Shown: positions 5,501 to 37,108, numbered from the stretch's first letter. The stretch: 64,000 nt of DNA from Candidatus Aenigmatarchaeota archaeon (GCA_044343545.1 JAWBZR010000003.1:10320-74319), one strand, 5' to 3'. The notes: generated by a model from the sequence alone, not told the origin. A program made the numbers and translations.

Positions 5501-5578
5501 CTTTATAAAACCTGTTGAGAAACATTAATCGATTATGGAAGAAAATTAAAAAATTGATTTTCTAAATTATTTTACAAA

Positions 5579-5651
5579 GCCTCAGTAGCTCAGTTGGTAG
5601 AGTACCTGCATGGTAAGCAGGTGGTCGCGGGTTCGATCCCCGCCTGAGGCT
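5579..5651 (+). tRNA. tRNA-Thr (GGT)
   Basis: Acceptor gcctcag/ctgaggc; D arm tagctcagttggtagagt; anticodon stem cctgc/gcagg with loop atGGTaa; T arm gcggg-ttcgatc-cccgc. Confidence 0.85.
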
Positions 5652-5820
5652 AGTCTTCTACCTTTGCTTGGTTTTGAATCAAAAAATTTATTAAATCATC
5701 ATAAGTCTGCAAACCATAAAGATTTCTATATTTATCTAGCAAACTTCTCATTTTTTCAAAAGTTACTTCGCTTATTTCCAAACTTATAGTCTTGTTAACA
5801 GTTTTAGGTTTCATATACAT
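5650..5820 (-). CDS. small hypothetical protein (56 aa), not in ORF track
   Basis: Minus-strand ORF MYMKPKTVNKTISLEISEVTFEKMRSLLDKYRNLYGLQTYDDLINFLIQNQAKVED. Its stop overlaps the 3' end of tRNA-Thr. Possible small RHH-like regulator; speculative. Confidence 0.2.
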   Translation of the reverse strand: MYMKPKTVNKTISLEISEVTFEKMRSLLDKYRNLYGLQTYDDLINFLIQNQAKVED

Positions 5821-5846
5821 TTAAAATTAAAAAAGAAAATTTAAAA

Positions 5847-8051
5847 TTAGCAACCGTGCGGTCCCATGCATCTTTCAGGTTTCTTGTTTCTCTTCTTGCC
5901 AAGCAAAGCAATTAACAGCAATAAAAGTAGCGGTAACAGCAATAAAAGCCATAATAGATTGAATTTGTTTTCAGCTTTTACTCTCATTGTTGAAGTTACC
6001 GAATATTTCGGAGACCCTTGAGCAGTAATTGTGAATTTGTATAAACCACTTGCATCGCATGGAACATTGACATCCACATACACCTTTCTGAATTCACCCG
6101 CGTCAAGCTCGATTGTGCTTGGGTAATTACTCAACCATTTAGCAGGTTCGCCTTCAAAACTTATTGTAAACATATCTTTTGCTTCGCCCACATTCTTGAC
6201 GATAAAGGAGATGTTTGTTTGTTGGCATTGTCTTACAACATATTCACTTTCAGCTCTCACTTGAGGATATCCCATCTTTATTGAAAATTCTCTTTCCAAC
6301 TCATCTGAAGCGTAGGGATTCCAGACGTTTACCTTTACCTTCATTATATCCGTATCTTCCGGAACTCTTATTACGAAGCTTACATCTCTCTCTTCGTTAG
6401 GTTTGAGCATTATTATGCCACCTGACATTGTTTTATTTAATGCATACAATCTTGTCTCTATATTAGGCTCTATATGCATTCCACAATTTCTTACTCTTAC
6501 TTTAAGAGTGGCTGTTTCACCTTCCTTTAACGGTTTTTCTGTCCACAAATCTTTAATTATCAAGCAATGCTCAGGTGTTGTCTTGAAATAGCTACTTTCA
6601 TCTATTATAAATCTTCTCATGGAAGTATCGCTTATTCCATCCAACCAAGCTGTTACTTCTATCGTATGCATTCCTTCTCCATATTTGTCTGCACTAAAGT
6701 AGAATTTGTATTCTTTTGTCTCTATGTGATAAAATCTCAAAGACGATTCTGTTAATACTTTGCCGTCTATCCTTACTTCAACATATACATTTTGTGGCAA
6801 AGAGGGTGCTTCTTTTAATGTGATAGGTACCTTACCTTCAACGAGATCAGAGGAGCGTGGATTTTCTGGATTTAGCCAGATAAATCCTACATCTATATCT
6901 TTTGGTTCAAAACATTTTATCACTCTTATAGCAGAATATCTCGTTTCACTATCTTTTGCACCTTCCACTACCACTTTAATGTCATGAGTTCCATAAGACA
7001 AGTCATAAGCATTATATTCATATTCTATTGAAAATGTTTTTCTTTCTCCAACATCTAATACATGAGTATCCTTGCCTATGTATATGTATCTCCCATCTTC
7101 TTTTATGTAGAATCTTGCCGTAACTTCTGTATCATCCCTACCAGCGACGAGTCTAACTGGGACAGAAATTTCTATGGTCGCGTCTCTTTCCCTGCATATG
7201 GTATATGGTGAAACTTCGATACTTCCCACACTTACATCTTCTGTGTCATAGCAAGATGGGGGGCAAATTGTTGTGGTTGTGCATGGTGGTTGAGGTACTT
7301 GTTTATTTCCAAACTTTACCTCTACTAGCAAGGGTGAATTTATCGTTACATACTGTGGATTTGAAGTAGTTGTTTGCCATCCATCAGGAACGTTTTCTCT
7401 AATGATGTAATAGCCGTAAGGCAAATTTGTCAACAAAGCATAACCGTCTGCATTCGTGTAAACCGTCGTAGTTATGGGGCCTATCACAGTAAAAGCAAAA
7501 CCTTGTAAGGGTTGTTCTCCATAATCCCATTGGCCGTTGCCGTTAGAATCGTAAAACTTGAAAATCTTTAAAGAGCCATATGGTAGTGTAGTTGTGGGTG
7601 GTGGTGTGGGAGTAGGTGGATTGCAATCAGCTGGGCTTTGTCTATCAGAAACCCAGACTATCCAATCTTTAGCTTCTCCTACACTATTCACTACATCTAT
7701 TTGTATAGTTGTGCATGGCTCAACATAGTTGGCAAGCGAAGCTGAAGACAAACCGAATTCGCCATAAATAAAGTTATAGCCTGGCAAATTTATGCACTCG
7801 TAATGAGGAGTGCCAGGTCTCATAGCAATACCTTTGCATTTATACACTGAAACTGTATAGCCTGAAGGTGCATAACAACTTCCTGAATATACATCACAAG
7901 TATTCACGCAATTAGGGTCATTTTCTGTACCTCCACAGACGTTTCTTATCCTTCCACCAAGTATAGGATAGTTTGGATCATATGCCAAGACTAAATTTAA
8001 TAGTAAGAGCAAAATGCTCAATAGTATTATTACTCTCTTCATAATGTTCAC
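5847..8051 (-). CDS. large cell-surface protein (signal peptide, Pro/Thr linker, C-terminal TM anchor + basic tail)
   Basis: N-terminal MNIMKRVIILLSILLLLLNLVLA. Linker PPTPTPPPTTT. C-terminus LLWLLLLLPLLLLLLIALLGKKRNKK (TM + Lys/Arg), the tripartite-like arrangement of sortase-type substrates. Confidence 0.6.
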   Translation of the reverse strand: MNIMKRVIILLSILLLLLNLVLAYDPNYPILGGRIRNVCGGTENDPNCVNTCDVYSGSCYAPSGYTVSVYKCKGIAMRPGTPHYECINLPGYNFIYGEFGLSSASLANYVEPCTTIQIDVVNSVGEAKDWIVWVSDRQSPADCNPPTPTPPPTTTLPYGSLKIFKFYDSNGNGQWDYGEQPLQGFAFTVIGPITTTVYTNADGYALLTNLPYGYYIIRENVPDGWQTTTSNPQYVTINSPLLVEVKFGNKQVPQPPCTTTTICPPSCYDTEDVSVGSIEVSPYTICRERDATIEISVPVRLVAGRDDTEVTARFYIKEDGRYIYIGKDTHVLDVGERKTFSIEYEYNAYDLSYGTHDIKVVVEGAKDSETRYSAIRVIKCFEPKDIDVGFIWLNPENPRSSDLVEGKVPITLKEAPSLPQNVYVEVRIDGKVLTESSLRFYHIETKEYKFYFSADKYGEGMHTIEVTAWLDGISDTSMRRFIIDESSYFKTTPEHCLIIKDLWTEKPLKEGETATLKVRVRNCGMHIEPNIETRLYALNKTMSGGIIMLKPNEERDVSFVIRVPEDTDIMKVKVNVWNPYASDELEREFSIKMGYPQVRAESEYVVRQCQQTNISFIVKNVGEAKDMFTISFEGEPAKWLSNYPSTIELDAGEFRKVYVDVNVPCDASGLYKFTITAQGSPKYSVTSTMRVKAENKFNLLWLLLLLPLLLLLLIALLGKKRNKKPERCMGPHGC

Positions 8052-14533: not shown

Positions 14534-16915
14534 CTATATTGCTGTTACTCGTGTGATTTGACTATATTCATCTTCATCTTTATTTCTATGAATCCTATAA
14601 ATTTCTCCCGTAGCAGCAGCCTCTAAATGAGGATTATGGGTTATTATAAATACTTGACTAACAAATTCTTTTATTCTATCTCTTAAAGCATCGGCCATTT
14701 GTAACACGGATTTTTCATCCAAACTTTCGGTGGGTTCATCAAGTATCAACCAATTAAGATGAGGTACTAACACTATAGAGAATGCTATCCTTAGTGCTAA
14801 GCAAGCCATTCTGCTTTCTCCGCCAGACAAATTTTCTACATCTACCCATTCTCTTTTCTTATTTAACAATTGTAACATATAATTTCCATCTTCGACGGCC
14901 ATCCTTATATCTACATAATCTCCATAAGGATATAATTCTTGCCATATTTCAGACATCTTGTTGTTGACCGATTCGATAAATTCAATCCTTAACTCAGATT
15001 GTGTTTTCTGTAAAGCTTCCTCGAAAGCATTTAAATTTTTAATAGCTTTTTCCAGCTTTAGCATATAATTTTTTTGAGAAATAACTTTTTCAAATTCAAA
15101 TTTTAATTTCTCCAAGAGATTTTTTCTATCATTCAAGCTTTTAACTTTCTCTTCATAAAGAGTTTTTTTCTTTATTAGCATATCTCTTGAGTTTTCATAC
15201 TCTCTTTTCAAATCGTCATAATTTAATTTATTTAGCAAGCTCTCATACTCTATTTTTTTGTTTTCTTCAAAATTTATTTCGCTCATTATTTTTTCGATAT
15301 CCGCTTTCAAGTCTTCAAGTTCTTTCGCTTTTTCAATTAAACTTTGAACTTGCAACATTTTAGCTTTTGCCTGATCTATTTGCTTCTCCAGTCTTTGCAA
15401 ATTATCTTTGCTCGTCGTTAAATTAGAATCTAATTCCAAAAGTATGTTTTCAAAATTTTTTATCTTGCTTTCATTTTCTTCATATTCTTTTAACAACTCT
15501 TCTTTTTTATCTAAATATACCTTCGCTTCTTCCATTTTTTTCGCATCAGACTCTATCTTTTCTATCTCCAACTCTAAATTTTTCTTTTCATTTTTCTTAA
15601 CTTCCAATTCACTTGATATTTTTTGAATTTCTTCTTTTTTATGAATCAATAACTGATGTTTGTTTTCTTTAGATATTAGCGAACCACAAACAGGACATTT
15701 GTTTTCTGTTTTTTCAAGTTGTGAAAATATGTTATCAACATCTTGTTTTTTATATTCTAAAAAAGAAATTTCTGAGTTTAAATCTTCTAACTTTTTTCTT
15801 TTTTCTTTAATAATATCTCTCACATTTTCTCCATAAATGGATAAAAGACTGTTAAAAACATTTATATGTTTCTCTATATTTTTCAATTCTCTCTCAATAT
15901 CAGCATTTCTATTTTTAAGTATTTTGCAATTGTTTTCGTTTTTGATCTTTTCTGAGAAAATTTTTTCATACATACTTTTTTCTTCAACAAATTCTTTTTC
16001 GTATATTTTCAACTCTTCAAAATATGTTTTATTTTTTTCGTTCATTTTTGCTATATCTTCGTTTTCTAACATTTTCATTAATTTCTCTTTCCTTTCAAGT
16101 TTTTCACTCAAAATTTTCTTTAAGCCTTTCAATCTCTCCATCAATCTCTCCAACTCAAATTTTTTTTCTTCAACTTCCTTTAATTTTACCTGTTTTTCTT
16201 CAACAATCAATTTCAATTCTTCTATATTTTTTAAAATGTTGTTAATTTCAATTTCATCAGCACTTATTTTTGCAGACAAATCATCAATTTCTCTTTTTTT
16301 ACCCTCTATATCTTCTTCAGACAGGATTCTTTGCAAACTTGACTTTTCAGCCTCCATTTTTGTTCTCAAATTCACCGTAGCTGATCTTGCTCTCTCAAAA
16401 TCATCTATTCGAAGCAAATTATCTATTTTTTTAGCTCTCTCACTTGGTGAAAGTCTTATGAAATAATCTATATTATTTTGTTCAGAATATATTGCCCTGC
16501 TAAACAATTCATAATCTACTTTTAATATTTTTTCTATAGCTTCAGTGACCCTCCTAGTATTTGGTCCTTCTATCAACTTATATTCTACATTCTCTCTCTT
16601 TCTCAGCTCTGAATATGTCGTGCCTTTATCCCTTTCAATAACTCTATAAACTGAATAGTCTTTACCTTCATAAGAAAATTCTAGTTCAACCCTAGCTTCA
16701 TTTAGCTTTATTGGTTTATTAGTAATCATATCCTCCAAATTTTGCTTTCTCGATTGAACTTTCGGTAAAGTTCCGAATAAAGCAAAAGAAATGGCATCCA
16801 TAATAGAACTTTTACCTGCACCGTTTATGCCAACAATCACATTAGTTCCGTCACTAAACTCAAGAACATTATCTTTATGCATTTTCCAATTAACCAACCT
16901 TATTCTCTTTATCAT
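14534..16915 (-). CDS. rad50: Rad50 DNA double-strand break repair ATPase
   Basis: N-terminal Walker A VGINGAGKSS. Long coiled coil with central CPVCG zinc hook. C-terminal signature LSGGESRMACLALR and Walker B LILDEPTESLD. Confidence 0.9.
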   Translation of the reverse strand: MIKRIRLVNWKMHKDNVLEFSDGTNVIVGINGAGKSSIMDAISFALFGTLPKVQSRKQNLEDMITNKPIKLNEARVELEFSYEGKDYSVYRVIERDKGTTYSELRKRENVEYKLIEGPNTRRVTEAIEKILKVDYELFSRAIYSEQNNIDYFIRLSPSERAKKIDNLLRIDDFERARSATVNLRTKMEAEKSSLQRILSEEDIEGKKREIDDLSAKISADEIEINNILKNIEELKLIVEEKQVKLKEVEEKKFELERLMERLKGLKKILSEKLERKEKLMKMLENEDIAKMNEKNKTYFEELKIYEKEFVEEKSMYEKIFSEKIKNENNCKILKNRNADIERELKNIEKHINVFNSLLSIYGENVRDIIKEKRKKLEDLNSEISFLEYKKQDVDNIFSQLEKTENKCPVCGSLISKENKHQLLIHKKEEIQKISSELEVKKNEKKNLELEIEKIESDAKKMEEAKVYLDKKEELLKEYEENESKIKNFENILLELDSNLTTSKDNLQRLEKQIDQAKAKMLQVQSLIEKAKELEDLKADIEKIMSEINFEENKKIEYESLLNKLNYDDLKREYENSRDMLIKKKTLYEEKVKSLNDRKNLLEKLKFEFEKVISQKNYMLKLEKAIKNLNAFEEALQKTQSELRIEFIESVNNKMSEIWQELYPYGDYVDIRMAVEDGNYMLQLLNKKREWVDVENLSGGESRMACLALRIAFSIVLVPHLNWLILDEPTESLDEKSVLQMADALRDRIKEFVSQVFIITHNPHLEAAATGEIYRIHRNKDEDEYSQITRVTAI

Positions 16916-17535
16916 ATCTTTACACCCAACTTTTTAAGGTCTAACAATAACTGTTTTGGATTCTTATAAACTATGCCATTTATTCCCAACTTGATTGCTG
17001 CCTCTACGTTTTTCTTCTTGTCATCTATGAATATGCATTCTTTCGGTTTTGCATTGATTCTTTCAAGCATCATGATGTAAATTTCTTTATTAGGTTTAGA
17101 TATTCCAACATCGCAAGAATTTATAACTACATCAAAATATTTGTAAAAATCATATTTTTTGTTAATCTCTTCGAGCCATGCATTATTGTTTGTCAAAAGT
17201 CCAAGCTTATAATTTTTTTTAAGATTTTTTATGATGTTTATCACGGGCTCTATAGGCTTGTTTAAGGATATTATTTCTTTTTTTAATTCAGTTTCATCAA
17301 AATCGTAACCCGTTACCTTTTTTATCTTCTTCCAAAACACACTTTCACTTATTTTACCCAAATTAAATTCTTCTACAAGCATCCTTATTTTTTTTCTCTT
17401 TTTAAAATTAAGCAAAAGTGAAAGGATCTTTATCTTTGAAATTTTTGAATTAAACAAAGCTTCTAACAAAAGTTGATTTGTTGTGCCGGGATAAAAACAA
17501 ACACCGCCAAAATCAAATATTATCGCTTTTATCAT
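16912..17535 (-). CDS. HAD-superfamily hydrolase
   Basis: Motif I MIKAIIFDFGGV (DxD nucleophile). Motif III/IV region FIDDKKKNVEAA. Overlaps mre11 (23 nt) and rad50 (4 nt), so it sits inside the mre11-rad50 operon. Confidence 0.7.
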   Translation of the reverse strand: MIKAIIFDFGGVCFYPGTTNQLLLEALFNSKISKIKILSLLLNFKKRKKIRMLVEEFNLGKISESVFWKKIKKVTGYDFDETELKKEIISLNKPIEPVINIIKNLKKNYKLGLLTNNNAWLEEINKKYDFYKYFDVVINSCDVGISKPNKEIYIMMLERINAKPKECIFIDDKKKNVEAAIKLGINGIVYKNPKQLLLDLKKLGVKI

Positions 17536-18730
17536 CCACCAATCCCTCCAAAATAAGTTTCTTAGCTTTCTCTAAATCTCCGCCAGACATGTAACTGTAT
17601 AATTGCAAAAAATCAATTTTATCATCAAAACCTACTTTTCTTATATTTTCTTCCAAAATTTTTATTCCCAATTCTTCAATTGAAATTTTAGATTCTCTCG
17701 CTTCTCTAAGAATTTGAACCTTTTTTTCTAGAAACTCTCCAGTCAACTCTTTAGAATATTTTATTATAAATTCATTAGAATATTCGTCTATTATATTTTT
17801 CATATCCTTATCAACGCTCAAAAGTCTGTTGTATTTAAGTTTTATTTTGAACAGAGGTTTCTTCTGATAGTTTCCTCTATGCTTTTCTATAACTTCCTTT
17901 ATTTGCTCTCCTATACTTCTCTCCTCTTTTATTTCAATTTCTTCATATATGAACTTTCTTTGACCCTTTATAGGTTCAAATTCCACTTTTTCTTCTGGAA
18001 GCAAGAGTTTATAAATGCCCTTTTCAGCCTGCTCCTCTTTTTTAGCTTGCGTGACGATTGTACTACCAGCAAGGATTATTTTCTTATCACCGATTTTTTC
18101 AAACCTCGAAGAATGAATATGACCGTTAATTATGAGATCAAAACCTTCCGGCAAAGAGTCGATTGTGAGAGTGGACGGTTCTGCAGGCGAATATATAAAT
18201 GGCACAATGTTTTGATGAAGCAAGAGTATATTATAGCATCCTTCTTTAGGTTGAGGTGACCATTCTTCTAAAATTTGTGAAGCATATCTTTCTGGCACAC
18301 CAGACATGCCTTGAATTGCCACTTTTATGCCATTTTTTTCGAAAATCAGACCATTCTTGTGTAAGTGATATAGCAATCCTGCTGACTCTAGAAGTTGTAC
18401 AGCATTATATTGTTCCCTTCCGACCCTTTCATGCGTTCCGTGTAGAGCTATGACAGGTATACCTTCGTGTTGTTTGACAACATTCTTTTTAATAGATTCG
18501 AACAATCTTGTCTCGGTTTTAACGGTTGATGGTATTGAAAATATTTGAACGGCCCTTGTTAATATATCTGGCTTTGGAAATCTGTTATCAAATATATCAC
18601 CACACACTATTATTAGGTCGCTATCTAGGCTTTGTTCCATTGCTTGTCTTGCCTGCTCAAAACTATCGTTTTCAAGTGGTGTATTTAGGGCAAAACCCAG
18701 ATGTAAATCAGAAAATATGGAAATTTTCAT
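17513..18730 (-). CDS. mre11: Mre11 nuclease (calcineurin-like phosphoesterase)
   Basis: Phosphoesterase motifs I-IV: ISIFSDLHLG, CGDIFD, GTHE, and GHIH in INGHIHSS. Confidence 0.85.
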   Translation of the reverse strand: MKISIFSDLHLGFALNTPLENDSFEQARQAMEQSLDSDLIIVCGDIFDNRFPKPDILTRAVQIFSIPSTVKTETRLFESIKKNVVKQHEGIPVIALHGTHERVGREQYNAVQLLESAGLLYHLHKNGLIFEKNGIKVAIQGMSGVPERYASQILEEWSPQPKEGCYNILLLHQNIVPFIYSPAEPSTLTIDSLPEGFDLIINGHIHSSRFEKIGDKKIILAGSTIVTQAKKEEQAEKGIYKLLLPEEKVEFEPIKGQRKFIYEEIEIKEERSIGEQIKEVIEKHRGNYQKKPLFKIKLKYNRLLSVDKDMKNIIDEYSNEFIIKYSKELTGEFLEKKVQILREARESKISIEELGIKILEENIRKVGFDDKIDFLQLYSYMSGGDLEKAKKLILEGLVDDKSDNI

Positions 18731-21199: not shown

Positions 21200-22246
21200 G
21201 TGAGCCTCATAAGGCTTTTGATTGTGGGTTTTGATCCTGGCGAAAAGGCTGGGTTAGCTTTAATAGATACGTTTGGAAGATTGATTCTCTTGACAAGTAA
21301 AAGTTCTGCAAGCCTATCTCATTTTTCTCAGATAATATTAAAATATGGTAAACCGATAATAGTGGCTACGGATAGAAAACCAACACCTAAATCAGTTGAA
21401 AAGCTGGCAAAATCCTTGGGTGCAAAAATCTACACGCCTTCGGAAACATTAACTGTAAAAGAAAAAAATGATATGGTAAAAAGATATGAAATAAACGTAA
21501 AAAATGATCATGAAAGAGATGCTGTTACCGCTGCATTAAAAGCTTACAAGCATTATGTGTCATTGTTTAAAAAAGTAAATATATCTCTTCATTCGTTGGG
21601 ATTGAATAATATATATAGCAATGTAGTCGAAAGTCTCGTGTTCGGCAAAGCAGAAAATTTGGATGAAGCAATTAATAAGGCTTTAAGTTTTAATAAGGAA
21701 GAAGTTAAAGTCGTAAAGCATTCTAGCAAAACCGAAAAGAAGGTTGATGTGGGCAGACTTGAAAAAGATTTGGAAATTTTGAGAAAGTATAATGAAAGGT
21801 TGAAAGAAGAAATAAAAAGGTTGAAAATGAAACCTAAGATAAAAGTTGTTATTCCAAAAAAAGAATTAGATGAAATGAATAAAACTTTGGAATTTATAAA
21901 GGCTTTGAGAAGACTAGAATTGCAAGGTTTCATACCAATAATAGAAGTAAATTTCGAAAATGCAGAAGATATTGATAAGAAAATAGATTTGATGGGTAGG
22001 GTTGTACATTGCGAGGAAAATAACTTGGAGTTTCTCAATAAATATCAAGTAAAAGCCTTGATAAGTTTCAAAGAAATTTCTATAGGAAAGTTGGACTATC
22101 CTGTCATTGTTTTAGATGAAAAAGAACTGAAAGAAAAGGATGGAATAAAGTATATAGAGAAAGAAATTTTGGAAGAAAAATTAAAAGAAGCGAGGAAAAA
22201 AGGGCTGATTGAATGGATAAAAGATTACAAAAAGAGAAGAATTTAA
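21200..22246 (+). CDS. RNase H-fold (RuvC/YqgF-like, DUF460/COG2433-like) protein with C-terminal coiled coil
   Basis: GTG start. N-terminal LLIVGFDPGEKAGLALID (YqgF/RuvC-like first Asp), then IIVATDR and NDHERDAVTAA acidic motifs. C-terminal half is Lys/Glu-rich coiled coil. Confidence 0.45.
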   Translation: MSLIRLLIVGFDPGEKAGLALIDTFGRLILLTSKSSASLSHFSQIILKYGKPIIVATDRKPTPKSVEKLAKSLGAKIYTPSETLTVKEKNDMVKRYEINVKNDHERDAVTAALKAYKHYVSLFKKVNISLHSLGLNNIYSNVVESLVFGKAENLDEAINKALSFNKEEVKVVKHSSKTEKKVDVGRLEKDLEILRKYNERLKEEIKRLKMKPKIKVVIPKKELDEMNKTLEFIKALRRLELQGFIPIIEVNFENAEDIDKKIDLMGRVVHCEENNLEFLNKYQVKALISFKEISIGKLDYPVIVLDEKELKEKDGIKYIEKEILEEKLKEARKKGLIEWIKDYKKRRI

Positions 22247-22731
22247 AGAACGTTTTATGGTTTTTTTTAAAGTTGAATCTTTTCTTAATACCGTTTTATC
22301 TTGTTATATATTTTGATGTAAAATATGAACCCCTACAAATTTTGTTCGCAAGTGCAATAAAAAAGTTCTTGAGTGTTTTTGGTTTTGAAATATTACAAGA
22401 CAGTTTTATTCTCTATCTTGGCCCTGAGAGGTATGCTGTAGACATATCTTTCGATTGTATAGGATGGAAATCTGCTTACTCACTCTTCGCCTTGGTAATT
22501 TCTTCGCCGGGTTTGTGGAAAGAGAAATTTGCCTTTTTATCTAAATGGTTGCCGTTAACATTTTTAATAAATTTTCTTAGAGTCATATTTGCATTGATCG
22601 TTGGTTTTGTCTTTGGGTTTAGAATAATGGCTCCCTTACATGATTACGTACTTCAACCCTTTATGATTGTGTTGGTTTTGTCTTTGTGGATGCTCTATAT
22701 GAATAGGAGAAGATTTATAGAGAAGAAATGA
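22213..22731 (+). CDS. minimal exosortase/archaeosortase-family membrane protein
   Basis: 172 aa, ~5 TM. Conserved-looking Cys motif SFDCIGWKSAYSLFAL (exosortase CxGxRS-like), N..R motif INFLRVIF and His APLHDY in the order seen in the EpsH/ArtA family. Overlaps both neighbours, so it is in an operon. Confidence 0.45.
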   Translation: MDKRLQKEKNLKNVLWFFLKLNLFLIPFYLVIYFDVKYEPLQILFASAIKKFLSVFGFEILQDSFILYLGPERYAVDISFDCIGWKSAYSLFALVISSPGLWKEKFAFLSKWLPLTFLINFLRVIFALIVGFVFGFRIMAPLHDYVLQPFMIVLVLSLWMLYMNRRRFIEKK

Positions 22732-23939
22732 TAATTAATATTAAGATGTCTGCGTCTAGAGAAGAAACAAAAACGAAAATATTGGAATTTGAGAGACGCA
22801 TAGCTGAGTTAGGTTTAGAAATAGAAAAAATAAAAAAAGATTTTAATGATGTTTGGGGCATAGTACCATATGTAAAAGGAAGGGTAGAAGACTTGGAGAT
22901 AAATGTAGATGTAATTATATTGGGCCTCAGCGACTTGAAAGACCAAATATCATCGATCTCGGGAGAACTAAATTCTTTCAAAAAGACTTTTTTCGAAAAT
23001 GTAGAAGAATATAACAATCGATTACAAGCTCTCAAAATGGATTTAAATCGAATTGTGGCGACGATTGAAAATAACAAGCTAAGCAATGAAAGTAATTTAA
23101 AAGCGATGAATGAAGATTTCCAGAAAAGGATAGATGTCTTAAAAGAAGTCATAGATAAATGTTTGGCACAAATAGATTTGATGCAAAAAAACATTGATTC
23201 AATTAATGGTAACGTTAAAGCGTTGCAAAAAGTTATTGAAATGACGGATAATTCTGCTTTGGTAAAACAAATAGATGTTCTAAATAGCAAAATAGTGAAT
23301 TTAAACGTAGCTTTAGAACAAGTAAAAAATTCTATACCTGACAATAGTGGCTTGGCTAGGGATATAAGCATCTTAAATAGCAAGATACAAACCGTTCAAA
23401 TGAACTTGATGGATGTTAAAAATGATCTTGCAGAGAAAGAAAAAAGAATAGCTCTAAATGAAATCGAGATTGAAAAGATAAAAGGTTCCACTAAAACTTC
23501 CATCGAGGAAATTAATGAAAAAATTAAAGAACAGGATGAAAAATTCATAAAGGCAAAAAATTTGGATGTTTTAGCTACCTTCGGTCTTGAAGCAAAAAAA
23601 AGAATTAATGAGATGGAAAAGATGAAAATGGATACAGAGGTAATGTATAAATCAATGCAAAAAATGAGTTATGAGATGAATAAGAGAATGTATGATTTTG
23701 CTTTGTTAAAAAACGAATTCGAAAAGATTAAAAAAGATGTTGAAAATTTGAGAGTTTTAATAGAAAAGCCAAAAGTTGAGCAATATGATATGGGTAAATT
23801 TTTGGAAGAACTGAAAAACAAAATAGCAGTTCCTGATAAAACTTTATTGGAAATAATTGAAAAAATGAAAAAGTTGGAAGAAAGGTTAGCTTTACTTGAA
23901 ATTTCGAGAAAGACAGAAATACCTGCTATTCTTGAATAA
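22728..23939 (+). CDS. long coiled-coil protein (403 aa)
   Basis: Heptad-rich Lys/Glu/Ile sequence throughout with no TM. Last gene of the three-gene operon. Confidence 0.5.
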   Translation: MIINIKMSASREETKTKILEFERRIAELGLEIEKIKKDFNDVWGIVPYVKGRVEDLEINVDVIILGLSDLKDQISSISGELNSFKKTFFENVEEYNNRLQALKMDLNRIVATIENNKLSNESNLKAMNEDFQKRIDVLKEVIDKCLAQIDLMQKNIDSINGNVKALQKVIEMTDNSALVKQIDVLNSKIVNLNVALEQVKNSIPDNSGLARDISILNSKIQTVQMNLMDVKNDLAEKEKRIALNEIEIEKIKGSTKTSIEEINEKIKEQDEKFIKAKNLDVLATFGLEAKKRINEMEKMKMDTEVMYKSMQKMSYEMNKRMYDFALLKNEFEKIKKDVENLRVLIEKPKVEQYDMGKFLEELKNKIAVPDKTLLEIIEKMKKLEERLALLEISRKTEIPAILE

Positions 23940-23950
23940 AGTTAAAAATT

Positions 23951-24382
23951 TTAAAATTTAATTTTTTCCCAATCCTCAATGCCACCATCAACCACATTGA
24001 AAAGAGGTGAAGGTTCTATTTCCTCGTTCATTATTTCTTTAAATTTTTTCTTATCTCTTCTTTCAAGTTTTTTCAACAAATATCGAAATTCATACTTCAA
24101 TTGGCCCCTCTTGACATCTATAACACCTTTCAAATGTGTAATCTGTATTTTTGACCTGTCAAACTTGTAACCTCTTCTTTCAGCTTCTTCTAAAGTATAT
24201 GTTAAAAAAGAATTTATAGCCTTTATCGGCTCAGGGTAAAGTTTGAATCTTTGAAGCTGAGGATGATTTTTATAACCTTTCGTTTTCCCTTCTAAAACTT
24301 TCTTTGCTAACAATCCTTCTCTCCATTGAGCTACTAATCCTTTTGAATCAAGATACTTTGGGTGCAAACTCCATAAACGCAT
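23951..24382 (-). CDS. pyrimidine-dimer DNA glycosylase (T4 endoV-like) family protein
   Basis: N-terminus MRLWSLHPKYLDSKGLVAQWREGLLAKKVL matches the conserved start of the Pyr_excise family as annotated in archaea and bacteria. Confidence 0.5.
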   Translation of the reverse strand: MRLWSLHPKYLDSKGLVAQWREGLLAKKVLEGKTKGYKNHPQLQRFKLYPEPIKAINSFLTYTLEEAERRGYKFDRSKIQITHLKGVIDVKRGQLKYEFRYLLKKLERRDKKKFKEIMNEEIEPSPLFNVVDGGIEDWEKIKF

Positions 24383-24438: not shown

Positions 24439-25521
24439 TTACGTAGGAATAACAGCCATATTATCAAAATCTTCCCAACGAGGTATATTGAACAAAGTAT
24501 ATACTCCACTTATAGGATCATTTACTATAAATGCTCTTTGTCCATATCTATAAGTCACGCCAGTAACAACCACTGCGTGTTCGCCATATATTAGCTTGAA
24601 AGTTTGACCTGTTTCTGGATCAGTTTCGGTTTCTACCGGGTTTGTGCGTCTGGATAACCAAACTATTACTGGCTTTCCTTGCATTATTGCATCTTCTAAC
24701 ATATCATAGTTTGCACTAACAGCTATTGAAGGAATACCATTATTGGTTAATAATTCGGCTATAGGCTCATTATATACCCCGTATCCTACAGGATTATTAT
24801 ATCCAGGTGGTGGGTTGCAATACGTAGATACATAACCATTTATTTCGCCTCTAAAGCCTCTGTGTGGATTGCAATGTTTGGGAATTTCTCTAACAAATTT
24901 TTCTTCCCAATAATCTGTTGATCCTTTTTTATAATAGGAAGCTATCATTGCAGCTGATGATAACTCGCAACTTAATTTATAATTTTGGCGATCCAGGGGT
25001 ACGTTTAATATTTTTTCCAAAAAAGTTGTTGTTGTTTGGCGAGTTGTTGTTGTTCTTGTGGTTGTTGTTGTTTGGCGAGTTGTTGTTGTTCTTGTGGTTG
25101 TTGTTTGGCGAGTTGTTGTTGTTCTTGTGGTTGTTGTTTGGCGAGTTGTTGTTGTTCTTGTGGTTGTTGTTGTTTGGCGAGTTGTTGTTGTTCTTGTGGT
25201 TGTTGGAGTAGAAGTAATTTGCGGACAATTAACTGTTCTGCAACAATATTCGTTTGGTTTGCATTGATATCTACCTAAACTTCCTATTCTACCTGCGACA
25301 CAACAATCTGATCTACAAGAAGCATAACCAGAACCGTCAAGAAATGTATTACACGGTGGGTCTGTTGTAGCAGAACTATAACGTATTGCTCCAAAATATT
25401 TTTTGAAAAAATCTAACACAGCATTTAAAAATTTTCCTTGAATATTATATTGAACTATAGCCGCAAATATTATTAACAAAACCAAAATTGAAACAAAAAT
25501 TAAAATTTTTTCCATAAACAA
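24439..25521 (-). CDS. secreted protein: signal peptide, Cys-rich module, Thr/Arg tandem repeats, C-terminal papain-like (C39-like) peptidase domain
   Basis: Signal/TM ILIFVSILVLLIIFAAIV. CNTF..CRSDCC..C..CC..C module. (TTTRTTTTRQTTTT)n linker. C-terminal domain with Cys (KLSCELSSAAMIASYY) and later His (GEHAVVVTGV) plus ND, the arrangement of C39-like peptidases. Confidence 0.5.
   Translation of the reverse strand: MFMEKILIFVSILVLLIIFAAIVQYNIQGKFLNAVLDFFKKYFGAIRYSSATTDPPCNTFLDGSGYASCRSDCCVAGRIGSLGRYQCKPNEYCCRTVNCPQITSTPTTTRTTTTRQTTTTTRTTTTRQTTTTRTTTTRQTTTTRTTTTRQTTTTTRTTTTRQTTTTFLEKILNVPLDRQNYKLSCELSSAAMIASYYKKGSTDYWEEKFVREIPKHCNPHRGFRGEINGYVSTYCNPPPGYNNPVGYGVYNEPIAELLTNNGIPSIAVSANYDMLEDAIMQGKPVIVWLSRRTNPVETETDPETGQTFKLIYGEHAVVVTGVTYRYGQRAFIVNDPISGVYTLFNIPRWEDFDNMAVIPT
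25034..25208. repeat. tandem repeat, 33/36-nt period, ~5 copies (encodes TTTRTTTTRQTT linker)
   Basis: Unit ggcgagttgttgttgttcttgtggttgttgtt(gtt) recurs at 25037, 25073, 25106, 25139 and 25175. Confidence 0.8.
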
Positions 25522-25602: not shown

Positions 25603-27645
25603 ATGCAAAGCTTTATTGTTCTTTTAGCAGAAAAACCTCAAGCAGCATTGAAAATAGCACAAGCATTAGCTGAAGGAGAAATTAACAAGAAAAGCGCAAA
25701 CAACGCTTATTGGTTTGAATTCTATAGAAATGGAGTAAAGCATGTCTGCTTACCTGCAGCAGGTCACTTGTTCGTATTGGATTCCAAAAATAAAAAATGG
25801 GATTATCCCATTTTTGAAATGGAGTGGGTTCCACCTCACAAAAAAAAGGTTAAATTTTCCTTAGCATATTACAAGAATCTAAAAAAATTTGAAAACGCAA
25901 AGAATGTCATTATCTGTTGCGATTACGATGTAGAAGGAGAAGTTATAGGATATAATATTTTAAGATTTATTTTTGGCAAAGAAGATGCGAAAAGGATGAA
26001 GTTTTCTACCCTCACAAAAACTGAGCTAATTGAAGCATATGAGAATGCTATGGATCATTTGGATTTTGGCCAAGTCAAAGCAGGTCTAACGAGACATTAC
26101 TTGGATTTTTTATGGGGAATAAACACAACAAGAGCCCTCACCATTTCAATGAAAAAAGCTATGGGTGGCTTTTCCATAGTTTCAACTGGAAGAGTTCAAG
26201 GACCTACTCTCTATTTGCTCACGAAAAGAGAAAGAGAAATAGCTAATTTTGTACCAAAACCATATTGGGAATTGGAATTGGTTGTATTAAAAAATGACAA
26301 AGAGATAATAGCAACATACGAAAAAGGAAAGTTATGGTCGAAAGAAGAAGCTGAAAAAATACTGAATGATTGCAAAGATAAAGATGTTATCGTCGTTGAA
26401 GTTAAAAAAAAGGAAAGTAAATTGATGCCTCCCACACCTTTCGACACGACAAGTTTGCAGACAGAAGCCTATAGATGTTTCGGTTTTTCACCAACACAAA
26501 CCTTAAACATAGCAGAATCTCTTTATACTTCAGGTTTTATTTCTTATCCGCGAACTAGCAGTCAAAAGTTACCTGAAAAGATAGGATATAAAAGCATATT
26601 TCAAGCATTAAAAAATATTAAAGAATTTTCGCTTTATGCGGAAGAAATTTTAAGTAAAAATGTTCTCAAGCCAAGAGAAGGCAAGAAAGATGATCCTGCT
26701 CATCCCGCTATATATCCCACCTCGCAAACACCAAAATTGAATGATCTGAATCAACAAGAAAGAAAGCTTTACGAGCTAATTGTAAGAAGATTTTTTGCTG
26801 TTTTTGCAGATGAAGCCATAAGAAAATTGTTAAAAATAGTTATGGACATAAACGGATACAAATTCGTTGCGAGAGGTTATGAAACTTTAAGTTTGGGATG
26901 GATGAAATATTATCCTTTTGTTGAAGCAAAAAAAGTTGAGTTGCCTGAAGTGAAAAAAGGTGAATTGTTGAAGCAAAAAAAGTTGAGCTTGTTAGAAAAA
27001 CAAACAAAACCGCCAGAGAGATATACTCAAGCTTCGATTTTAAAAGAAATGGAAAAGAATAATTTGGGTACGAAAGCAACGAGAGCCCAAATATTACAAA
27101 CTTTATATGACAGAGGTTATATAGAAGGGAAAAGTATCAAAGTTACTAGTTTTGGAATGGCAGTAATAGAAGCATTGGAAAAATATTGTCCAGAAATCAT
27201 AGATGTAAATCTAACCGCAAAATTCGAAAAGGAAATGGAGCTAATAAGAGAAAAAAAGAAGGAAATGGAAGACGTGATAGAAGAAGCGAAAAATGTTTTG
27301 CAAGTAATATTGAAAGAATTTAAAGAAAATGAAAGAGACATAGGTGGATTTTTGGCAAAAAAATACAATATCATGAGGAAAGAAAAAAATGTTTTAGGCA
27401 AATGTCCCTATTGTGGAAGTGATATATTAGTTATAACATCAAAATCTTCTGGTAAAAGATTTGCCGGATGCTCTAACCATAAAAATGGCTGTAATTTTTC
27501 TTTATCTTTACCCCAGAAAGGTGAGATTTACCATACACAAAAAAAATGTGAAAAATGTGGGATGCCGATGATAACGATAAAATATAAAGGTAAAAAACCT
27601 TTTTCTACGTGCATGAATTATCAATGTAGAAAAAAATCAGCATGA
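25603..27645 (+). CDS. topA: DNA topoisomerase, type IA (TopA / topo III-like) with C-terminal zinc ribbons
   Basis: Toprim start VLLAEKPQAAL. Active-site region GFISYPRTSS (catalytic Tyr). C-terminal CPYCG..C.NHKNGC and CEKCGMPM..C zinc ribbons. Confidence 0.85.
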   Translation: MQSFIVLLAEKPQAALKIAQALAEGEINKKSANNAYWFEFYRNGVKHVCLPAAGHLFVLDSKNKKWDYPIFEMEWVPPHKKKVKFSLAYYKNLKKFENAKNVIICCDYDVEGEVIGYNILRFIFGKEDAKRMKFSTLTKTELIEAYENAMDHLDFGQVKAGLTRHYLDFLWGINTTRALTISMKKAMGGFSIVSTGRVQGPTLYLLTKREREIANFVPKPYWELELVVLKNDKEIIATYEKGKLWSKEEAEKILNDCKDKDVIVVEVKKKESKLMPPTPFDTTSLQTEAYRCFGFSPTQTLNIAESLYTSGFISYPRTSSQKLPEKIGYKSIFQALKNIKEFSLYAEEILSKNVLKPREGKKDDPAHPAIYPTSQTPKLNDLNQQERKLYELIVRRFFAVFADEAIRKLLKIVMDINGYKFVARGYETLSLGWMKYYPFVEAKKVELPEVKKGELLKQKKLSLLEKQTKPPERYTQASILKEMEKNNLGTKATRAQILQTLYDRGYIEGKSIKVTSFGMAVIEALEKYCPEIIDVNLTAKFEKEMELIREKKKEMEDVIEEAKNVLQVILKEFKENERDIGGFLAKKYNIMRKEKNVLGKCPYCGSDILVITSKSSGKRFAGCSNHKNGCNFSLSLPQKGEIYHTQKKCEKCGMPMITIKYKGKKPFSTCMNYQCRKKSA

Positions 27646-31116: not shown

Positions 31117-33438
31117 TTAAATATTTTTAAATCTAGAATGTCTCCAACCTTTACCTACTATATAGCCACTTTTTTTCAGTCGTGGATAATAAAACCATAA
31201 TAATATTGCTAAAAATATCAAGGCCAATGCTATGGCCGTCCATTTGAAAAATGTAGCTACTGTTAAACCTGTAATTTCTCTCTTTTCTTGCAGTGTTGTC
31301 GTAGTAGAAACAGGTGTTGTTGTTATACTCTCCTTGACTTGCAAATACATCGTTTTGGCATAAGTTCTCGTGCCATATTCAGATTTTGAAGGAAATCTAA
31401 AGAAAATTTTGTAAGTGTAAATCTTTGCATTTTCAGGTATATGAATTTGCATCCTCATAATCTTTTCTTGTTTTGGCTGCAAAACATCGATTTCCTTTGG
31501 CTCGAACGCATACCATCTAACATCGAAGCCTTCACTATCAACTAAAGGATAGATATCATAAATTGGATAATCTAATGGATTGTAGAATTTTATTTCGATT
31601 GAAACTTTTTCGCCTTGTAAGAGCTCCACTTTGCTTGGCAGAGTGATGTTAATATCACCTTGCTCTCTAAAAATTAATGTGGTTGTCGTTCCTTCGCCAA
31701 CCCTCCCTCTCGAATATTCGTAAGCTAGCTCGTAAGAAATCACATACGATTTCGATAACTGATTATTATTTTCATTCCTTTCAAACACACTATTTTGTTG
31801 ATCGACTATTGCTTTGATTTCATGATGTCCTTTGGGTAAATTTTGAATCTCTAAATTTACTACATATTGCTGGTTTGCATCGAGAGATGGAATGTTTTTA
31901 CTCTCAAGCAGCGTTGAATCAAACAAAACAACAAGATTAAAGTTTCTTGCAATGCCACTTCCTATGTTTTTGGCCGTGATCCTTACGTTTAGTTTTCCTC
32001 CTTCAGTTGGCTCATCCAAAAAATTTATTGATTCTATTGTTAAATCTGGCAAACCTATCAAAAAACCTCTATCATATATATAATCATAATTACCATCTGC
32101 GTCTATGTCTATAGCATACACCCCATATTCTTTCATAAACACATTAGTTATCATTCCTCTACTAGGATCCCAATATTTTTCATAAATTCCATCCTTACCC
32201 AAATCTACCAAAAATTGTCTTGAATTATCGCCATACACGTTTATTGGCAACAAATTATAATCTCCGATGAATGGTTGTGTGGGGAGGATGTACTCGTTAT
32301 TTAATAACCAATTTACGGAATTCTTGAACATCAACTCAACATCGTCTGTCCAATAGATCGGCTCCGCTATGCCAAAAAAAACTATCCTTGCTGAAGTGAT
32401 ATTATTATTTAACAACAAAGTTCCTGGCTCTGCGTAAGCTATAACAGCATAGTTGCTTGAGCTGGTTAAAGAAGCTGCGACAGATAAAGGTGAGCGAAAC
32501 AGCTCCACGTTTAAAACTGGTTGATTGTTAATTATATGCGCTCTTACCCTTGCATTTAATTGATAACCGTGAAGCATTGTTGAATTATCCACTATAGTTA
32601 TGTAAGTGGGGTTGCTCGAAAAAACACTACCAATAGCTCCTGGATGGACCCAACCAAAATCATCTGGATACACAGAATCTATGACCAAAGTGGGTTTACT
32701 ATTAACAGGCAAAGAAGCGACAAAACTGTCCAGATGCTCGCTTGCATACACATTCGAAGGTCTTCCTGCTATTATTATTGCTGAAAAAGAATTAAAGTCA
32801 TAATTTTTATAATTAGAGTTGTCTATTAGCATTACATCATGATGCATGTCTTTCAATATTCTATGAATTCTGTATTCGTGCACATAATCTAAATCGGTTG
32901 AGTTTTTCACTATTAAAGCAATGTTTGCTGCTTGAGTTAGAGGTAAAAACATCAAAAGAAGCATCAAAATCTTACCTTTTTTTGTACGCATAAACATCAA
33001 GATGGCTAAAAGGATCAAGGGCAATAAAAGAAAGTAGTAAGGTGGATTGCTTGATTTTTTTTCACCTGAAGCTATTATTATTATTTCTGACTGCAAGGCA
33101 ACCGGAATTTCACCTTCTTTTGTGTAGGTGACTACCACGCCTCCCTCGTATATTCCAGGTTTATCAACAATTAAAGTAAAGTTTTCTTGTCTCAATTCTC
33201 CCGGTTTTAATTCAATCTTTTTCGAAATGCGAATTTTGTCTGTAATATTTCCTATGGGAGTAAAGCTCACGTTGACGGTTTCGTTGTTATTATTTTTCAC
33301 TTCTATGAAACCATGCCAACTGTTGGTTTGCGTTAAATTTATTCTTGCAATCATCCTTGGCGGTCTTACATAAACTTCTAAAGCGTAAACAAAAGATATG
33401 CTTAAAAGTAGTAATAGGAGGATTAATTTCCATCTCAT
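31117..33438 (-). CDS. large secreted/surface protein, apparently two signal-peptide-bearing modules fused in frame
   Basis: Start moved to MRWKLILLLLLLSISFVYA (signal peptide). Residues ~135-160 of this CDS (165-190 of the track ORF) look like a C-terminal TM + basic tail (YYFLLLPLILLAILMFMRTKKGK). A second signal-peptide-like segment ILMLLLMFLPLTQA follows. C-terminus is Thr-rich + TM (FFKWTAIALALIFLAILLWFYY) + basic tail. Confidence 0.5.
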   Translation of the reverse strand: MRWKLILLLLLLSISFVYALEVYVRPPRMIARINLTQTNSWHGFIEVKNNNNETVNVSFTPIGNITDKIRISKKIELKPGELRQENFTLIVDKPGIYEGGVVVTYTKEGEIPVALQSEIIIIASGEKKSSNPPYYFLLLPLILLAILMFMRTKKGKILMLLLMFLPLTQAANIALIVKNSTDLDYVHEYRIHRILKDMHHDVMLIDNSNYKNYDFNSFSAIIIAGRPSNVYASEHLDSFVASLPVNSKPTLVIDSVYPDDFGWVHPGAIGSVFSSNPTYITIVDNSTMLHGYQLNARVRAHIINNQPVLNVELFRSPLSVAASLTSSSNYAVIAYAEPGTLLLNNNITSARIVFFGIAEPIYWTDDVELMFKNSVNWLLNNEYILPTQPFIGDYNLLPINVYGDNSRQFLVDLGKDGIYEKYWDPSRGMITNVFMKEYGVYAIDIDADGNYDYIYDRGFLIGLPDLTIESINFLDEPTEGGKLNVRITAKNIGSGIARNFNLVVLFDSTLLESKNIPSLDANQQYVVNLEIQNLPKGHHEIKAIVDQQNSVFERNENNNQLSKSYVISYELAYEYSRGRVGEGTTTTLIFREQGDINITLPSKVELLQGEKVSIEIKFYNPLDYPIYDIYPLVDSEGFDVRWYAFEPKEIDVLQPKQEKIMRMQIHIPENAKIYTYKIFFRFPSKSEYGTRTYAKTMYLQVKESITTTPVSTTTTLQEKREITGLTVATFFKWTAIALALIFLAILLWFYYPRLKKSGYIVGKGWRHSRFKNI

Positions 33439-33540
33439 ATTCTTCACAACTGATGTATAGTAAAAAATTAAAGTATTTAAAATTTGATTTAACGCTATTC
33501 GATAGAAAAATTTTTTCATTAACATTTGCATATTTCATAC

Positions 33541-36061: not shown

Positions 36062-37108
36062 TTAGATTGCTTTACCAAATACCATTATTTGGCCCTGTGT
36101 GAAGGTACCAATGCATGGCATTGGATACGTTAACTTGAATTCTACTTCTGCCAATCCACCGTTTGTTAATATGTTATCTGCTGGTGATGGTGATAATCCA
36201 TTGCCTCTGAATGTCAATGGACTACCTCCATAGCATGTGTTTTCAGTCCAGCTAATTACACATTGTGCGTTTTGATTGTATTCTGTCATTTGTCTCCAGC
36301 CATCTTCTCCTTGCCATTGAGAGCCAGACCAACCTCTGTATTTCATGTATGTCTCAACATCTATCTTGTTTGTATCTGGACATTTTGATGCACCGTTCGG
36401 ATCATACAAATCTGTAGCGGCTATATACATCCACATGTTAACGCCGCCTTCTGCTGTGTTTCTTACTTGTAGTCTATTCAAAGAGTGCACTGTTCTTTCT
36501 TCTGGTGTATCAGCTCCATATGGTAGAGGTTCAAATCTTATTGGTTGTCCGTCATTTGTGGACACAGATAGAGACAATACTGGATTGAAATACCATGTCT
36601 CTACGTGTGTTCCGTCTGTTGGCACATTAGCAGAGTTGTAGGCTGTTAGCTTGACTTCGGTATAGCCATACCATTGTGGCTCTACCGTTATCAAGCATTC
36701 AAATGCTTTATCTGTTTCAAGATTTACCTCGCCCATGCCGTTGCATGTCATGTTTTTTGGCAAGCTAACTGGGTTGCACACTACTTCTGGGTTACCTCCA
36801 ACTCTTGCCTTTAGCCAACCAATATCCAATGCACCATTAGGATCCCTTACTATGGCAAAAAGTTGAATTTGCTCGCCTGTAAAGGCATAAGAGCTTACTC
36901 TGTAGTCAAATGGGTTTATGCTTGCACCGGATCCTAAAGATGCATTTGCTCCTATTGTTATATTTCTGTCATATACGCAGATTCTTGGTGTTTGGTCGCC
37001 AGGGCCTGCGCTTGCTCCCACGCCGCCGACTGCTACATCAGCAGCTACTAGGGAAACTACCATAGTTGCTAGAACCAAAGATACTACCAATGCTGCTAAA
37101 TATTTCAT
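36062..37108 (-). CDS. secreted protein, family A copy 1 (paralog of 39721-40761); visibly higher G+C than surroundings
   Basis: Sec signal MKYLAALVVSLVLATMVVSLVAA. Shares with the 39721 ORF the blocks CNGMGEVNLETDKAFECLITVEPQWY / PIRFEPLPYG / NTAEGGVNMWMYIA / C-terminal YPMPCIGTFTQGQIMVFGKAI. Confidence 0.55.
   Translation of the reverse strand: MKYLAALVVSLVLATMVVSLVAADVAVGGVGASAGPGDQTPRICVYDRNITIGANASLGSGASINPFDYRVSSYAFTGEQIQLFAIVRDPNGALDIGWLKARVGGNPEVVCNPVSLPKNMTCNGMGEVNLETDKAFECLITVEPQWYGYTEVKLTAYNSANVPTDGTHVETWYFNPVLSLSVSTNDGQPIRFEPLPYGADTPEERTVHSLNRLQVRNTAEGGVNMWMYIAATDLYDPNGASKCPDTNKIDVETYMKYRGWSGSQWQGEDGWRQMTEYNQNAQCVISWTENTCYGGSPLTFRGNGLSPSPADNILTNGGLAEVEFKLTYPMPCIGTFTQGQIMVFGKAI

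Follow-up and report, generated by a model that had tools for sequence, protein, structure and literature searches.

Why is a sortase-like membrane protein encoded, in overlapping reading frames, between a putative DNA nuclease and a coiled-coil protein? The question is raised by positions 21200-23939 of a 64,000-nucleotide (nt) stretch of DNA from a Candidatus Aenigmatarchaeota archaeon (DPANN), the whole of which is referred to here as the window. Three open reading frames (ORFs) lie at this locus:

21200-22246, plus strand: ORF1, DUF460 protein, 348 amino acids (aa), GTG start
22213-22731, plus strand: ORF2, sortase-like membrane protein, 172 aa
22728-23939, plus strand: ORF3, coiled-coil protein, 403 aa
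22213-22246, plus strand: overlap of the DUF460 and sortase-like ORFs, 34 nt, read from the DNA

ORF2 is a genuine member of the exosortase/archaeosortase superfamily, and the clade to which it belongs is an unnamed minimal subfamily confined to Aenigmatarchaeota, with genes for a DUF460 protein and for coiled-coil proteins bearing a short C-terminal tail motif as its regular neighbours. The function that we propose for this arrangement, at about an even chance of being right, is that of an active sortase for surface proteins, with the coiled-coil protein as a cytoplasmic scaffold and possibly with DUF460 in the same assembly. Membership of the superfamily is already annotated, with an NCBI entry 100% identical to ORF2 named “archaeosortase/exosortase family protein”. 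The novelty lies in the subfamily, in its association with the operon, and in the tail motif, none of which was found described in the literature searched. The same search returned nothing on a link between DUF460 and sortases, on the function of COG2433, or on pacearchaeosortase, XrtX, or XrtH, although many subscription papers lay outside it, and absence from the literature is thus not proven.

The sortase-like membrane protein

ORF2 exceeds the cut-offs of two superfamily signatures, with 35.9 bits against TIGR04178 (cut-off 23) and 35.5 bits against PF09721 Exosortase_EpsH (cut-off 25.7). TIGR04178 is matched by all 36 clade members tested, comprising 29 orthologs (E < 0.001) and seven divergent members (39-56 bits). 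A preliminary description of the window had pointed to Cys, Arg, and His motifs in the order expected of the family and had proposed a comparison with the hidden Markov models TIGR04178 and TIGR04125, the latter representing ArtA. The first model is matched as above; the second is not matched by ORF2 at E values up to 1, with relatives of ORF2 reaching ~29 bits at most (cut-off 75). The motifs are present in the expected order as DCIGWKS (Cys82), NFLRV (Arg123), and APLHDY (His143), with the codons of this sortase-type triad assigned from the ortholog alignment as follows:

22456-22458, plus strand: Cys82
22579-22581, plus strand: Arg123
22639-22641, plus strand: His143

All three residues are invariant in the alignment of the 29 orthologs (40-62% identity), as are D81, W85, K86, and N120, and in 10 further divergent members the Arg and His are invariant and the Cys is present in nine. 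With this pattern of conservation, ORF2 is probably catalytically active.

The AlphaFold2 (AF2) model of ORF2, with a predicted local distance difference test (pLDDT) score of 86.8, contains a short helix at residues 39-55 among four long ones at residues 3-33, 80-97 (broken into two), 102-134, and 136-171, as well as a small three-stranded sheet at residues 60-77; no solved structure resembling this fold was found. The ends of the protein are basic, with a net charge of ~+3 for the N-terminal tail and ~+4 for the C-terminal tail, and of up to ~+12 in the related locus L025. The C-terminal tail of the L025 protein (5528-6193) is very basic and ends in KGSRRPKKKKRVLVRRKR, and the sortase-like proteins of L021 (1464-2120) and L022 (1091-1741) carry a Lys/Arg-rich N-terminal extension of ~45 aa. 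The basic N- and C-terminal tails, together with the AF2 helices, suggest an N-in, C-in topology with four transmembrane (TM) helices, from which we infer that Cys82 and His143 are placed at the membrane's outer face and that the basic tails are cytoplasmic, the outward orientation of Cys and His resting on the positive-inside rule as applied to these tails.

Comparison with named sortase families

ORF2 resembles the exosortase superfamily at large in passing both signature cut-offs, in the conserved order of its Cys, Arg, and His residues, and in being a predicted polytopic membrane protein. It differs in that its clade is encoded in a DNA-repair operon, and not beside substrates, lipid-synthesis genes, or polysaccharide genes, and in that no cognate C-terminal sorting signal was identified for it within the 64-kb window.

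Short sortase-like enzymes of 150-170 aa are already modelled in NCBIfam, among them ArtB (156 aa), XrtH (158 aa), ArtF (166 aa), pacearchaeosortase (167 aa), XrtX (168 aa), and also XrtY. XrtX, XrtH, ArtB, and ArtF share with ORF2 its size class and the core of catalytic helices, with XrtX (38.4 bits, cut-off 170), XrtH (34.1 bits, cut-off 86), and ArtF (25.6 bits, cut-off 150) the best-scoring specific models for ORF2, all far under their cut-offs, and with ArtB at 16.2 bits (cut-off 150). The best score of any clade member on XrtX is 51 bits. ArtB is accompanied by the VPXXXP-CTERM signal and XrtH by IPTLxxWG-CTERM; these four enzymes have specific C-terminal signals, none of which was found here.

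The pacearchaeosortase model (NF033505) likewise describes a minimal DPANN enzyme of ~170 aa, and 23 of the 29 orthologs match it at E < 0.001. The scores nevertheless fall far under its cut-off of 80, with the best clade member at 43.4 bits and ORF2 itself not matched at E values up to 1. Its companion model for a putative S-layer protein, PACE-CTERM-PROT (NF033506), is weakly matched by the C-terminal part of a 734-aa protein of the window (27 bits, cut-off 110).

ArtA of Haloferax volcanii (TIGR04125) shares the superfamily and the triad with ORF2, but its model spans 271 positions with more TM helices, its substrates bear a PGF-CTERM that is absent from the candidate substrates of the window, and in Methanosarcina it shows synteny with pssA, not with DNA enzymes. 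In H. volcanii, ArtA acts as a peptidase and lipid-anchoring enzyme, and archaeosortases have been described as limited to some Euryarchaeota (PMC6098224).

Since the ORF2 clade falls below the cut-off of every named subfamily, we regard it as an unnamed one. The term “novel minimal archaeosortase”, used in the preliminary description, overstates the novelty given the existing NCBI name and the 150-170-aa models; only the subfamily lacks a name.

The coiled-coil protein and its C-terminal tail

The protein encoded by ORF3 lacks both TM helices and a signal peptide, and its family matches in Pfam, NCBIfam, and PADLOC are sub-threshold and limited to coiled coils. Alignment delineates a conserved N-terminal module, followed by a variable coiled-coil rod and a conserved C-terminal helix with a tail. 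The relatives measure 146-608 aa, and some are encoded as two genes. Tailed orthologs occupy the same operon position in 21 of the 23 loci with enough downstream DNA, and in the window the tail is encoded as follows:

23922-23936, plus strand: C-terminal pentapeptide Pro-Ala-Ile-Leu-Glu, at the equivalent position in L001-L026 and L046

The consensus, directly before the stop codon, is [QK]-P-[VIA]-[IV]-[LI]-E, with examples including PAILE, PVILE, PVVIE, and PIVLE. Across 20 distinct proteins, Pro at position -5 and Glu at position -1 are present in 20/20, with V/I/A/F, I/V, and L/I/M at the positions between them. Of the 1,107 ORFs that reach 100 aa in the whole of the fetched DNA, 22 have the tail, against 0.19 expected from composition, and every one of these 22 ORFs is the gene, or one of the genes, directly 3' of the sortase-like gene.

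The tail of ORF3 looks like a docking peptide. It was also considered as a sortase sorting signal and rejected as such, since it comes with neither a TM helix nor a basic cluster and belongs to a cytoplasmic protein that lacks a signal peptide, with the triad of the enzyme predicted to face outward. The possibility that the tailed coiled coil is a split-off C-terminal half of DUF460 was rejected too, with a profile of that half returning generic coiled-coil noise only and with no DUF460 protein bearing the tail. The helix that precedes the tail often reads L-x-x-R-L-x-x-L-E, resembling an ESCRT-III MIM1-type motif, which may just reflect the heptad pattern. In L015, from a metagenome-assembled genome that bears the label Micrarchaeota, the sortase-like gene is followed by one (2297-2761) for a DUF7365-like, untailed coiled coil of 154 aa with an N-terminal TM anchor.

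Conservation of the gene cluster and probable translational coupling

For the comparison of gene order, the sortase-like protein served to retrieve a first set of 21 loci and DUF460 a second set of nine loci of Aenigmarchaeota type; a third set comprised ~65 DUF460 loci of other archaea. DUF460 lies immediately upstream of the sortase-like gene in 30/30 loci, made up of 21/21 from the first set and 9/9 from the second, the nine being those with room downstream. The usual order is a Hef-like helicase, an XPF nuclease, DUF460, the sortase-like gene, either one coiled-coil gene or two, in some loci a pyrimidine-dimer glycosylase, and a type IA topoisomerase. The preliminary description had noted neither this repair-gene context nor the C-terminal tail of the coiled-coil protein. 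The adjacency of DUF460 and the sortase-like gene is kept despite the loss of Hef and XPF, as in the window, where polyamine genes lie upstream instead, and in L015 and L022, where the coiled-coil and topoisomerase genes have been lost. It is also kept when the ~350-aa DUF460 protein is replaced by a stand-alone nuclease domain of ~160 aa, and where there is no overlap at all (L024 and L025).

Two of the usual downstream genes are found in the window:

23951-24382, minus strand: Pyr_excise pyrimidine-dimer DNA glycosylase (Pfam E 3.5e-24)
25603-27645, plus strand: type IA DNA topoisomerase (Topoisom_bac E 7.8e-127, plus Toprim)

The topoisomerase is usually the last gene of the cluster, following the coiled-coil gene in most related loci, and in the window it is parted from the trio by two minus-strand genes. 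In the closest relatives, L001 and L010, the Pyr_excise gene likewise lies between the coiled-coil gene and the topoisomerase. Further afield in the window, ftsZ lies 5.5 kb downstream of the trio, and an ATPase of 793 aa resembling Rad50 and a phosphoesterase of 405 aa resembling Mre11, with a gene for a HAD-family hydrolase between them, are encoded 2.5 kb upstream of it (14534-18730, minus strand).

Both overlaps within the trio, and the coordinates of its three ORFs as first described, were confirmed in the DNA. In its two frames, the 34-nt overlap codes for two basic termini, the C-terminus of DUF460 and the N-terminus of the sortase-like protein, and at 22728-22731 the start codon of ORF3 shares the sequence ATGA with the TGA stop codon of ORF2. 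The 34-nt overlap recurs in nearly all long-form loci; in short-form loci the two genes overlap by 4 nt (L008) or 17 nt (L006) or are 4-11 nt apart (L024 and L025). As the overlaps and the gene order are repeated in 30 related loci, they are not due to chance, and as the trio leaves no room for internal promoters, the three ORFs almost certainly share one transcript with coupled translation. No match to an Rfam family of structured RNAs was obtained between 19000 and 26000.

Two antisense ORFs, at 21589-22038 and 22715-23383 on the minus strand, were dismissed as low-complexity shadows of the coding strand. The 34-nt overlap places ORF2 in the -1 frame, and a programmed -1 frameshift that would join DUF460 and the sortase-like protein in one product was rejected as well. 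This idea is contradicted by the conservation of the sortase-like N-terminus, MxKRxQKKKxxK, as a genuine start, by the 4- or 17-nt overlaps and small gaps of the short-form loci, and by the absence of a fused sortase domain from all 293 DUF460 proteins (0/293).

Conservation of the DUF460, sortase-like, and coiled-coil genes as a set, which the preliminary description had proposed to test in other archaea, holds within Aenigmatarchaeota and does not extend beyond them. The sortase-like and tailed coiled-coil genes co-occur in Aenigmatarchaeota only, with both absent from the ~65 DUF460 loci of other archaea, ~50 of which are of the 650-aa class; neither a sortase-like gene nor any protein with at least three TM helices was found downstream of DUF460 in these loci (0/~65).

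This distribution is what would be expected if a housekeeping sorting enzyme had been inserted once into an essential repair operon of the Aenigmatarchaeota ancestor, had no relation to its neighbours, and had been kept in place by vertical inheritance, compact genomes, and overlapping frames, an explanation that we consider possible, though doubtful. All loci come from one phylum, the ~65 loci without a sortase-like neighbour indicate that DUF460 does not need one, and the triad is conserved as it would be in a normal sortase. Furthermore, conserved operons can hold unrelated membrane proteins, such as that encoded by secY in the ribosomal spc operon. However, the adjacency of DUF460 and the sortase-like gene has outlasted a change in DUF460 architecture and several rearrangements that arose independently in the flanks, even without overlap, and a second lineage-specific gene, encoding the tailed protein, travels with the sortase-like gene, which is hard to explain if the two are unrelated.

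The DUF460 protein and a possible role in DNA processing

ORF1 matches Pfam DUF460 (PF04312 / COG2433) with an E value of 2.8e-33 and 114.9 bits (cut-off 28). Its AF2 model (pLDDT 85.6) consists of an N-terminal RuvC-like RNase-H-fold domain (residues ~1-133), a helical linker, coiled-coil helices (residues 184-241), and a C-terminal alpha/beta domain, the last helix of which is basic. The fold, when tested, was RNase-H-like and of the RuvC type, which bears out the earlier description of this protein as RuvC/YqgF-like. Conservation points to the following putative catalytic codons:

21233-21235, plus strand: Asp12
21461-21463, plus strand: Glu88
21509-21511, plus strand: His104
21518-21520, plus strand: Asp107

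D12, E88, H104, and D107 are invariant in alignment A2; in alignment A3 (33 full-length homologs), D12, H104, and D107 are invariant and E88 is at least 90% conserved. The same holds for the matching residues of 20 distant DUF460 members (alignment A4), with Asp, His, and Asp invariant and Glu at least 90% conserved; A4 was too diverse for scanning, for which A5 was used in its place. These four residues resemble the D-E-H-D active site of Thermus thermophilus RuvC, a putative equivalence drawn from fold and motif rather than from residue-level superposition. DUF460 resembles RuvC and YqgF/RuvX in its conserved Asp, Glu, His, and Asp, at putatively RuvC-like positions, and differs from RuvC in its additional coiled coil and C-terminal domain, in its low identity (~16-17%), and in being a family of archaea only. 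Majorek et al. 2014 placed DUF460 beside the junction resolvases by sequence, and likewise found it in Archaea only (PMC3985635).

An exhaustive search for DUF460 gave ~1,600 clusters, falling into size classes of ~160, ~350, and ~650 aa. Two parts of the 350-aa form, its coiled coil and its C-terminal domain, are shared across the family. The C-terminal half also matches a split Methanobacterium gene (E 3e-8); in that locus (L007, 2182-3695, Methanobacterium sp.), DUF460 is present as two adjacent ORFs, one for the nuclease domain (207 aa) and one for the coiled coil and C-terminal domain (261 aa), a split that could be real or could be an assembly frameshift.

In one sortase-free lineage (L055, 1536-5959), a full-length Hef protein (helicase, ERCC4, and HhH, 799 aa) is encoded divergently beside a 369-aa DUF460 protein, followed by a KaiC/RecA-like ATPase, an arrangement that supports a role of DUF460 in DNA repair independent of the sortase. 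Together, these features strengthen the case for DUF460 as a RuvC-like putative repair nuclease, similar to junction resolvases and working with Hef. In another archaeal lineage (L077, L082, L088, L090, and L098), the gene directly after DUF460 is that of Alba, a protein binding chromatin or RNA, with the Pfam Alba assignment confirmed for L090.

A putative repair nuclease in this position allows for a second alternative, which we judge unlikely, in which the sortase-fold protein would serve mainly as the hub of a membrane complex with the tailed coiled coil and the RuvC-like DUF460. The hub function might also be a second role of the enzyme, to which the coiled-coil protein would bind by its tail, and the two would keep DUF460 at the membrane or division site. 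With Hef, XPF, and topoisomerase IA, such a membrane-tethered machine would act on DNA at the division site or envelope, resolving or decatenating it, for which septum-linked chromosome resolution in bacteria offers a loose analogue. It would account for the conserved operon of Hef, XPF, DUF460, sortase-like, coiled-coil, and TopA genes, for the RuvC-like fold and conserved catalytic set of DUF460, for the proximity of Hef to DUF460 even where no sortase is present, and for the presence of Rad50, Mre11, and ftsZ nearby in the window. The extremely basic cytoplasmic extensions, comprising the 45-aa N-tails of L021 and L022 and the C-tail of L025, are also in keeping with it, although basic tails are ordinary determinants of topology too. 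The strict conservation of a Cys/Arg/His triad predicted to face outward argues instead for a retained extracellular enzymatic role, and there is no precedent for a DNA-associated protein with a sortase fold, with nothing in the literature searched that joins exosortases with Holliday junctions.

A defence system or mobile element, in which the nuclease would join a membrane effector and a coiled coil of SMC type against viruses, is very improbable, and a defence or phage origin is effectively refuted: whilst ORF3 has weak PADLOC matches (E 1e-6 to 1e-3) to the arms, themselves coiled coils, of LmuB, DruC, and JetC, neither DUF460 nor the sortase-like protein has a PADLOC or PHROG match, and the cluster lies at a fixed syntenic site of the core genome, by housekeeping repair genes, in every genome examined, with a G+C content typical of the window (~30% across it) and no flanking repeats, integrase, or tRNA.

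Candidate substrates and proposed function

Were ORF2 to act as a sortase for surface proteins, its substrates would be expected among exported proteins in which basic residues follow a C-terminal TM helix. Two of the ~55 proteins of the window have such a terminus, and both are CARDB-domain surface proteins:

5847-8051, minus strand: candidate substrate 1 (the best, still weak), 734 aa, signal peptide, C-terminal TM helix, and basic tail; Pfam CARDB, SdrD_B, and SpaA
31117-33531, minus strand: candidate substrate 2, 804 aa, CARDB (E 3.8e-18), C-terminal TM helix, and basic tail

The first candidate ends in ...LLLLLPLLLLLLIALLGKKRNKK followed by the 10 residues PERCMGPHGC. Its residues 611-714 provide the sub-threshold match to PACE-CTERM-PROT, and no relatives of this protein were found in a metagenome scan. 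The second contains an internal segment, NPPYY, a TM helix, and RTKKGK (...NPPYYFLLLPLILLAILMFMRTKKGK), followed in frame by a stretch resembling a signal peptide, with no stop codon between them; the segment looks like either a membrane hairpin within one polypeptide, as encoded, or the junction of two fused anchored surface proteins. The start previously given for this gene, 33438, corresponds to Met32 of the longest ORF, 31117-33531.

The preliminary description had counted several surface proteins with a TM helix and a Lys/Arg cluster, had found no PGF or PEF motif in them, and had proposed an undescribed sorting signal. Termini of this kind do exist, in two proteins (three termini) rather than several, with no ORF identified for the example named B0, and it remains true that neither candidate contains a PGF or PEF motif or matches the PGF-CTERM model. 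The proposed signal is not supported in this 64 kb of one genome, with two candidates, no common motif, and no CTERM match.

According to the function proposed at the outset, the sortase-like enzyme would act outside the cell, cleaving or re-anchoring C-terminally anchored surface proteins as other archaeosortases do. Inside, the co-acquired coiled-coil protein would form a cytoplasmic scaffold that docks via its tail and positions the enzyme, and DUF460 may join the same membrane-proximal assembly; the contacts between these proteins, as well as the substrates, we infer. A scaffold is made plausible by the placement of Haloferax ArtA at midcell together with FtsZ1 (PMC7157517) and by the presence of ftsZ downstream of the trio.

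Several observations weigh against surface-protein sorting by a scaffolded enzyme. On the substrate side, the two candidates share no Pro-containing motif before the TM helix, and neither matches a known CTERM sorting model. Additionally, 17-20 residues follow the TM helix in these proteins, and tails of this length exceed those of known sortase signals. On the side of the assembly, the evidence for a functional link is gene order in a single phylum, and vertical inheritance together with overlapping frames could keep unrelated genes together. The triad is predicted to face outward, while both partner proteins lack a signal peptide and TM helices, so that the tail cannot act as a conventional sortase signal. 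A docking site on the short cytoplasmic loops would be hypothetical. Furthermore, two loci (L015 and L022) are without the tailed coiled-coil gene, and in L008 (5459-5992) the catalytic Cys is replaced by Ser (DSTGWKS), with the Arg and His retained.

Other features of the window

A Peptidase_C39-like protein, membrane-anchored or secreted, is encoded at 24439-25521 on the minus strand, and its Thr-rich linker (TTTTRQTTTT...) is coded by a 36-nt tandem repeat of ~5 copies at 25024-25205. Two paralogous secreted proteins of ~347 aa with no family match (36062-37108 and 39721-40761, both minus strand) have a common C-terminus (...YP.PCIGTF.QG.I...). Sub-threshold similarity to models of ligand-gated ion channels (LGIC_1 64.7 bits, cut-off 500), which is unusual for an archaeon, is shown by the 298-aa protein at 46897-47793 on the plus strand, which has a signal peptide. 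The region 48000-54000 has a G+C content of 0.21-0.24, compared with 0.28-0.38 elsewhere, and contains several minus-strand ORFs; it may be an acquired or fast-evolving island.

Significance

Archaeosortases have so far been studied almost only in haloarchaea, and the subfamily described here is a distinct, minimal one that is fixed throughout a DPANN phylum. No described sortase has a comparable context, with the enzyme translationally coupled to a RuvC-like putative nuclease and a new family of tailed coiled-coil proteins within a Hef/XPF/topoisomerase operon. If the sortase-like gene has only been carried along with its neighbours, the locus still provides a new sortase subfamily, with substrates still to find. 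If the three proteins form a membrane complex that processes DNA, envelope growth would be coupled to chromosome resolution in a DPANN phylum, and the complex would offer a first functional handle on the archaea-wide DUF460 family. More generally, should the link between these genes be functional, it would reveal either the positioning or regulation of a sortase from the cytoplasm, or a membrane-tethered DNA-processing assembly.

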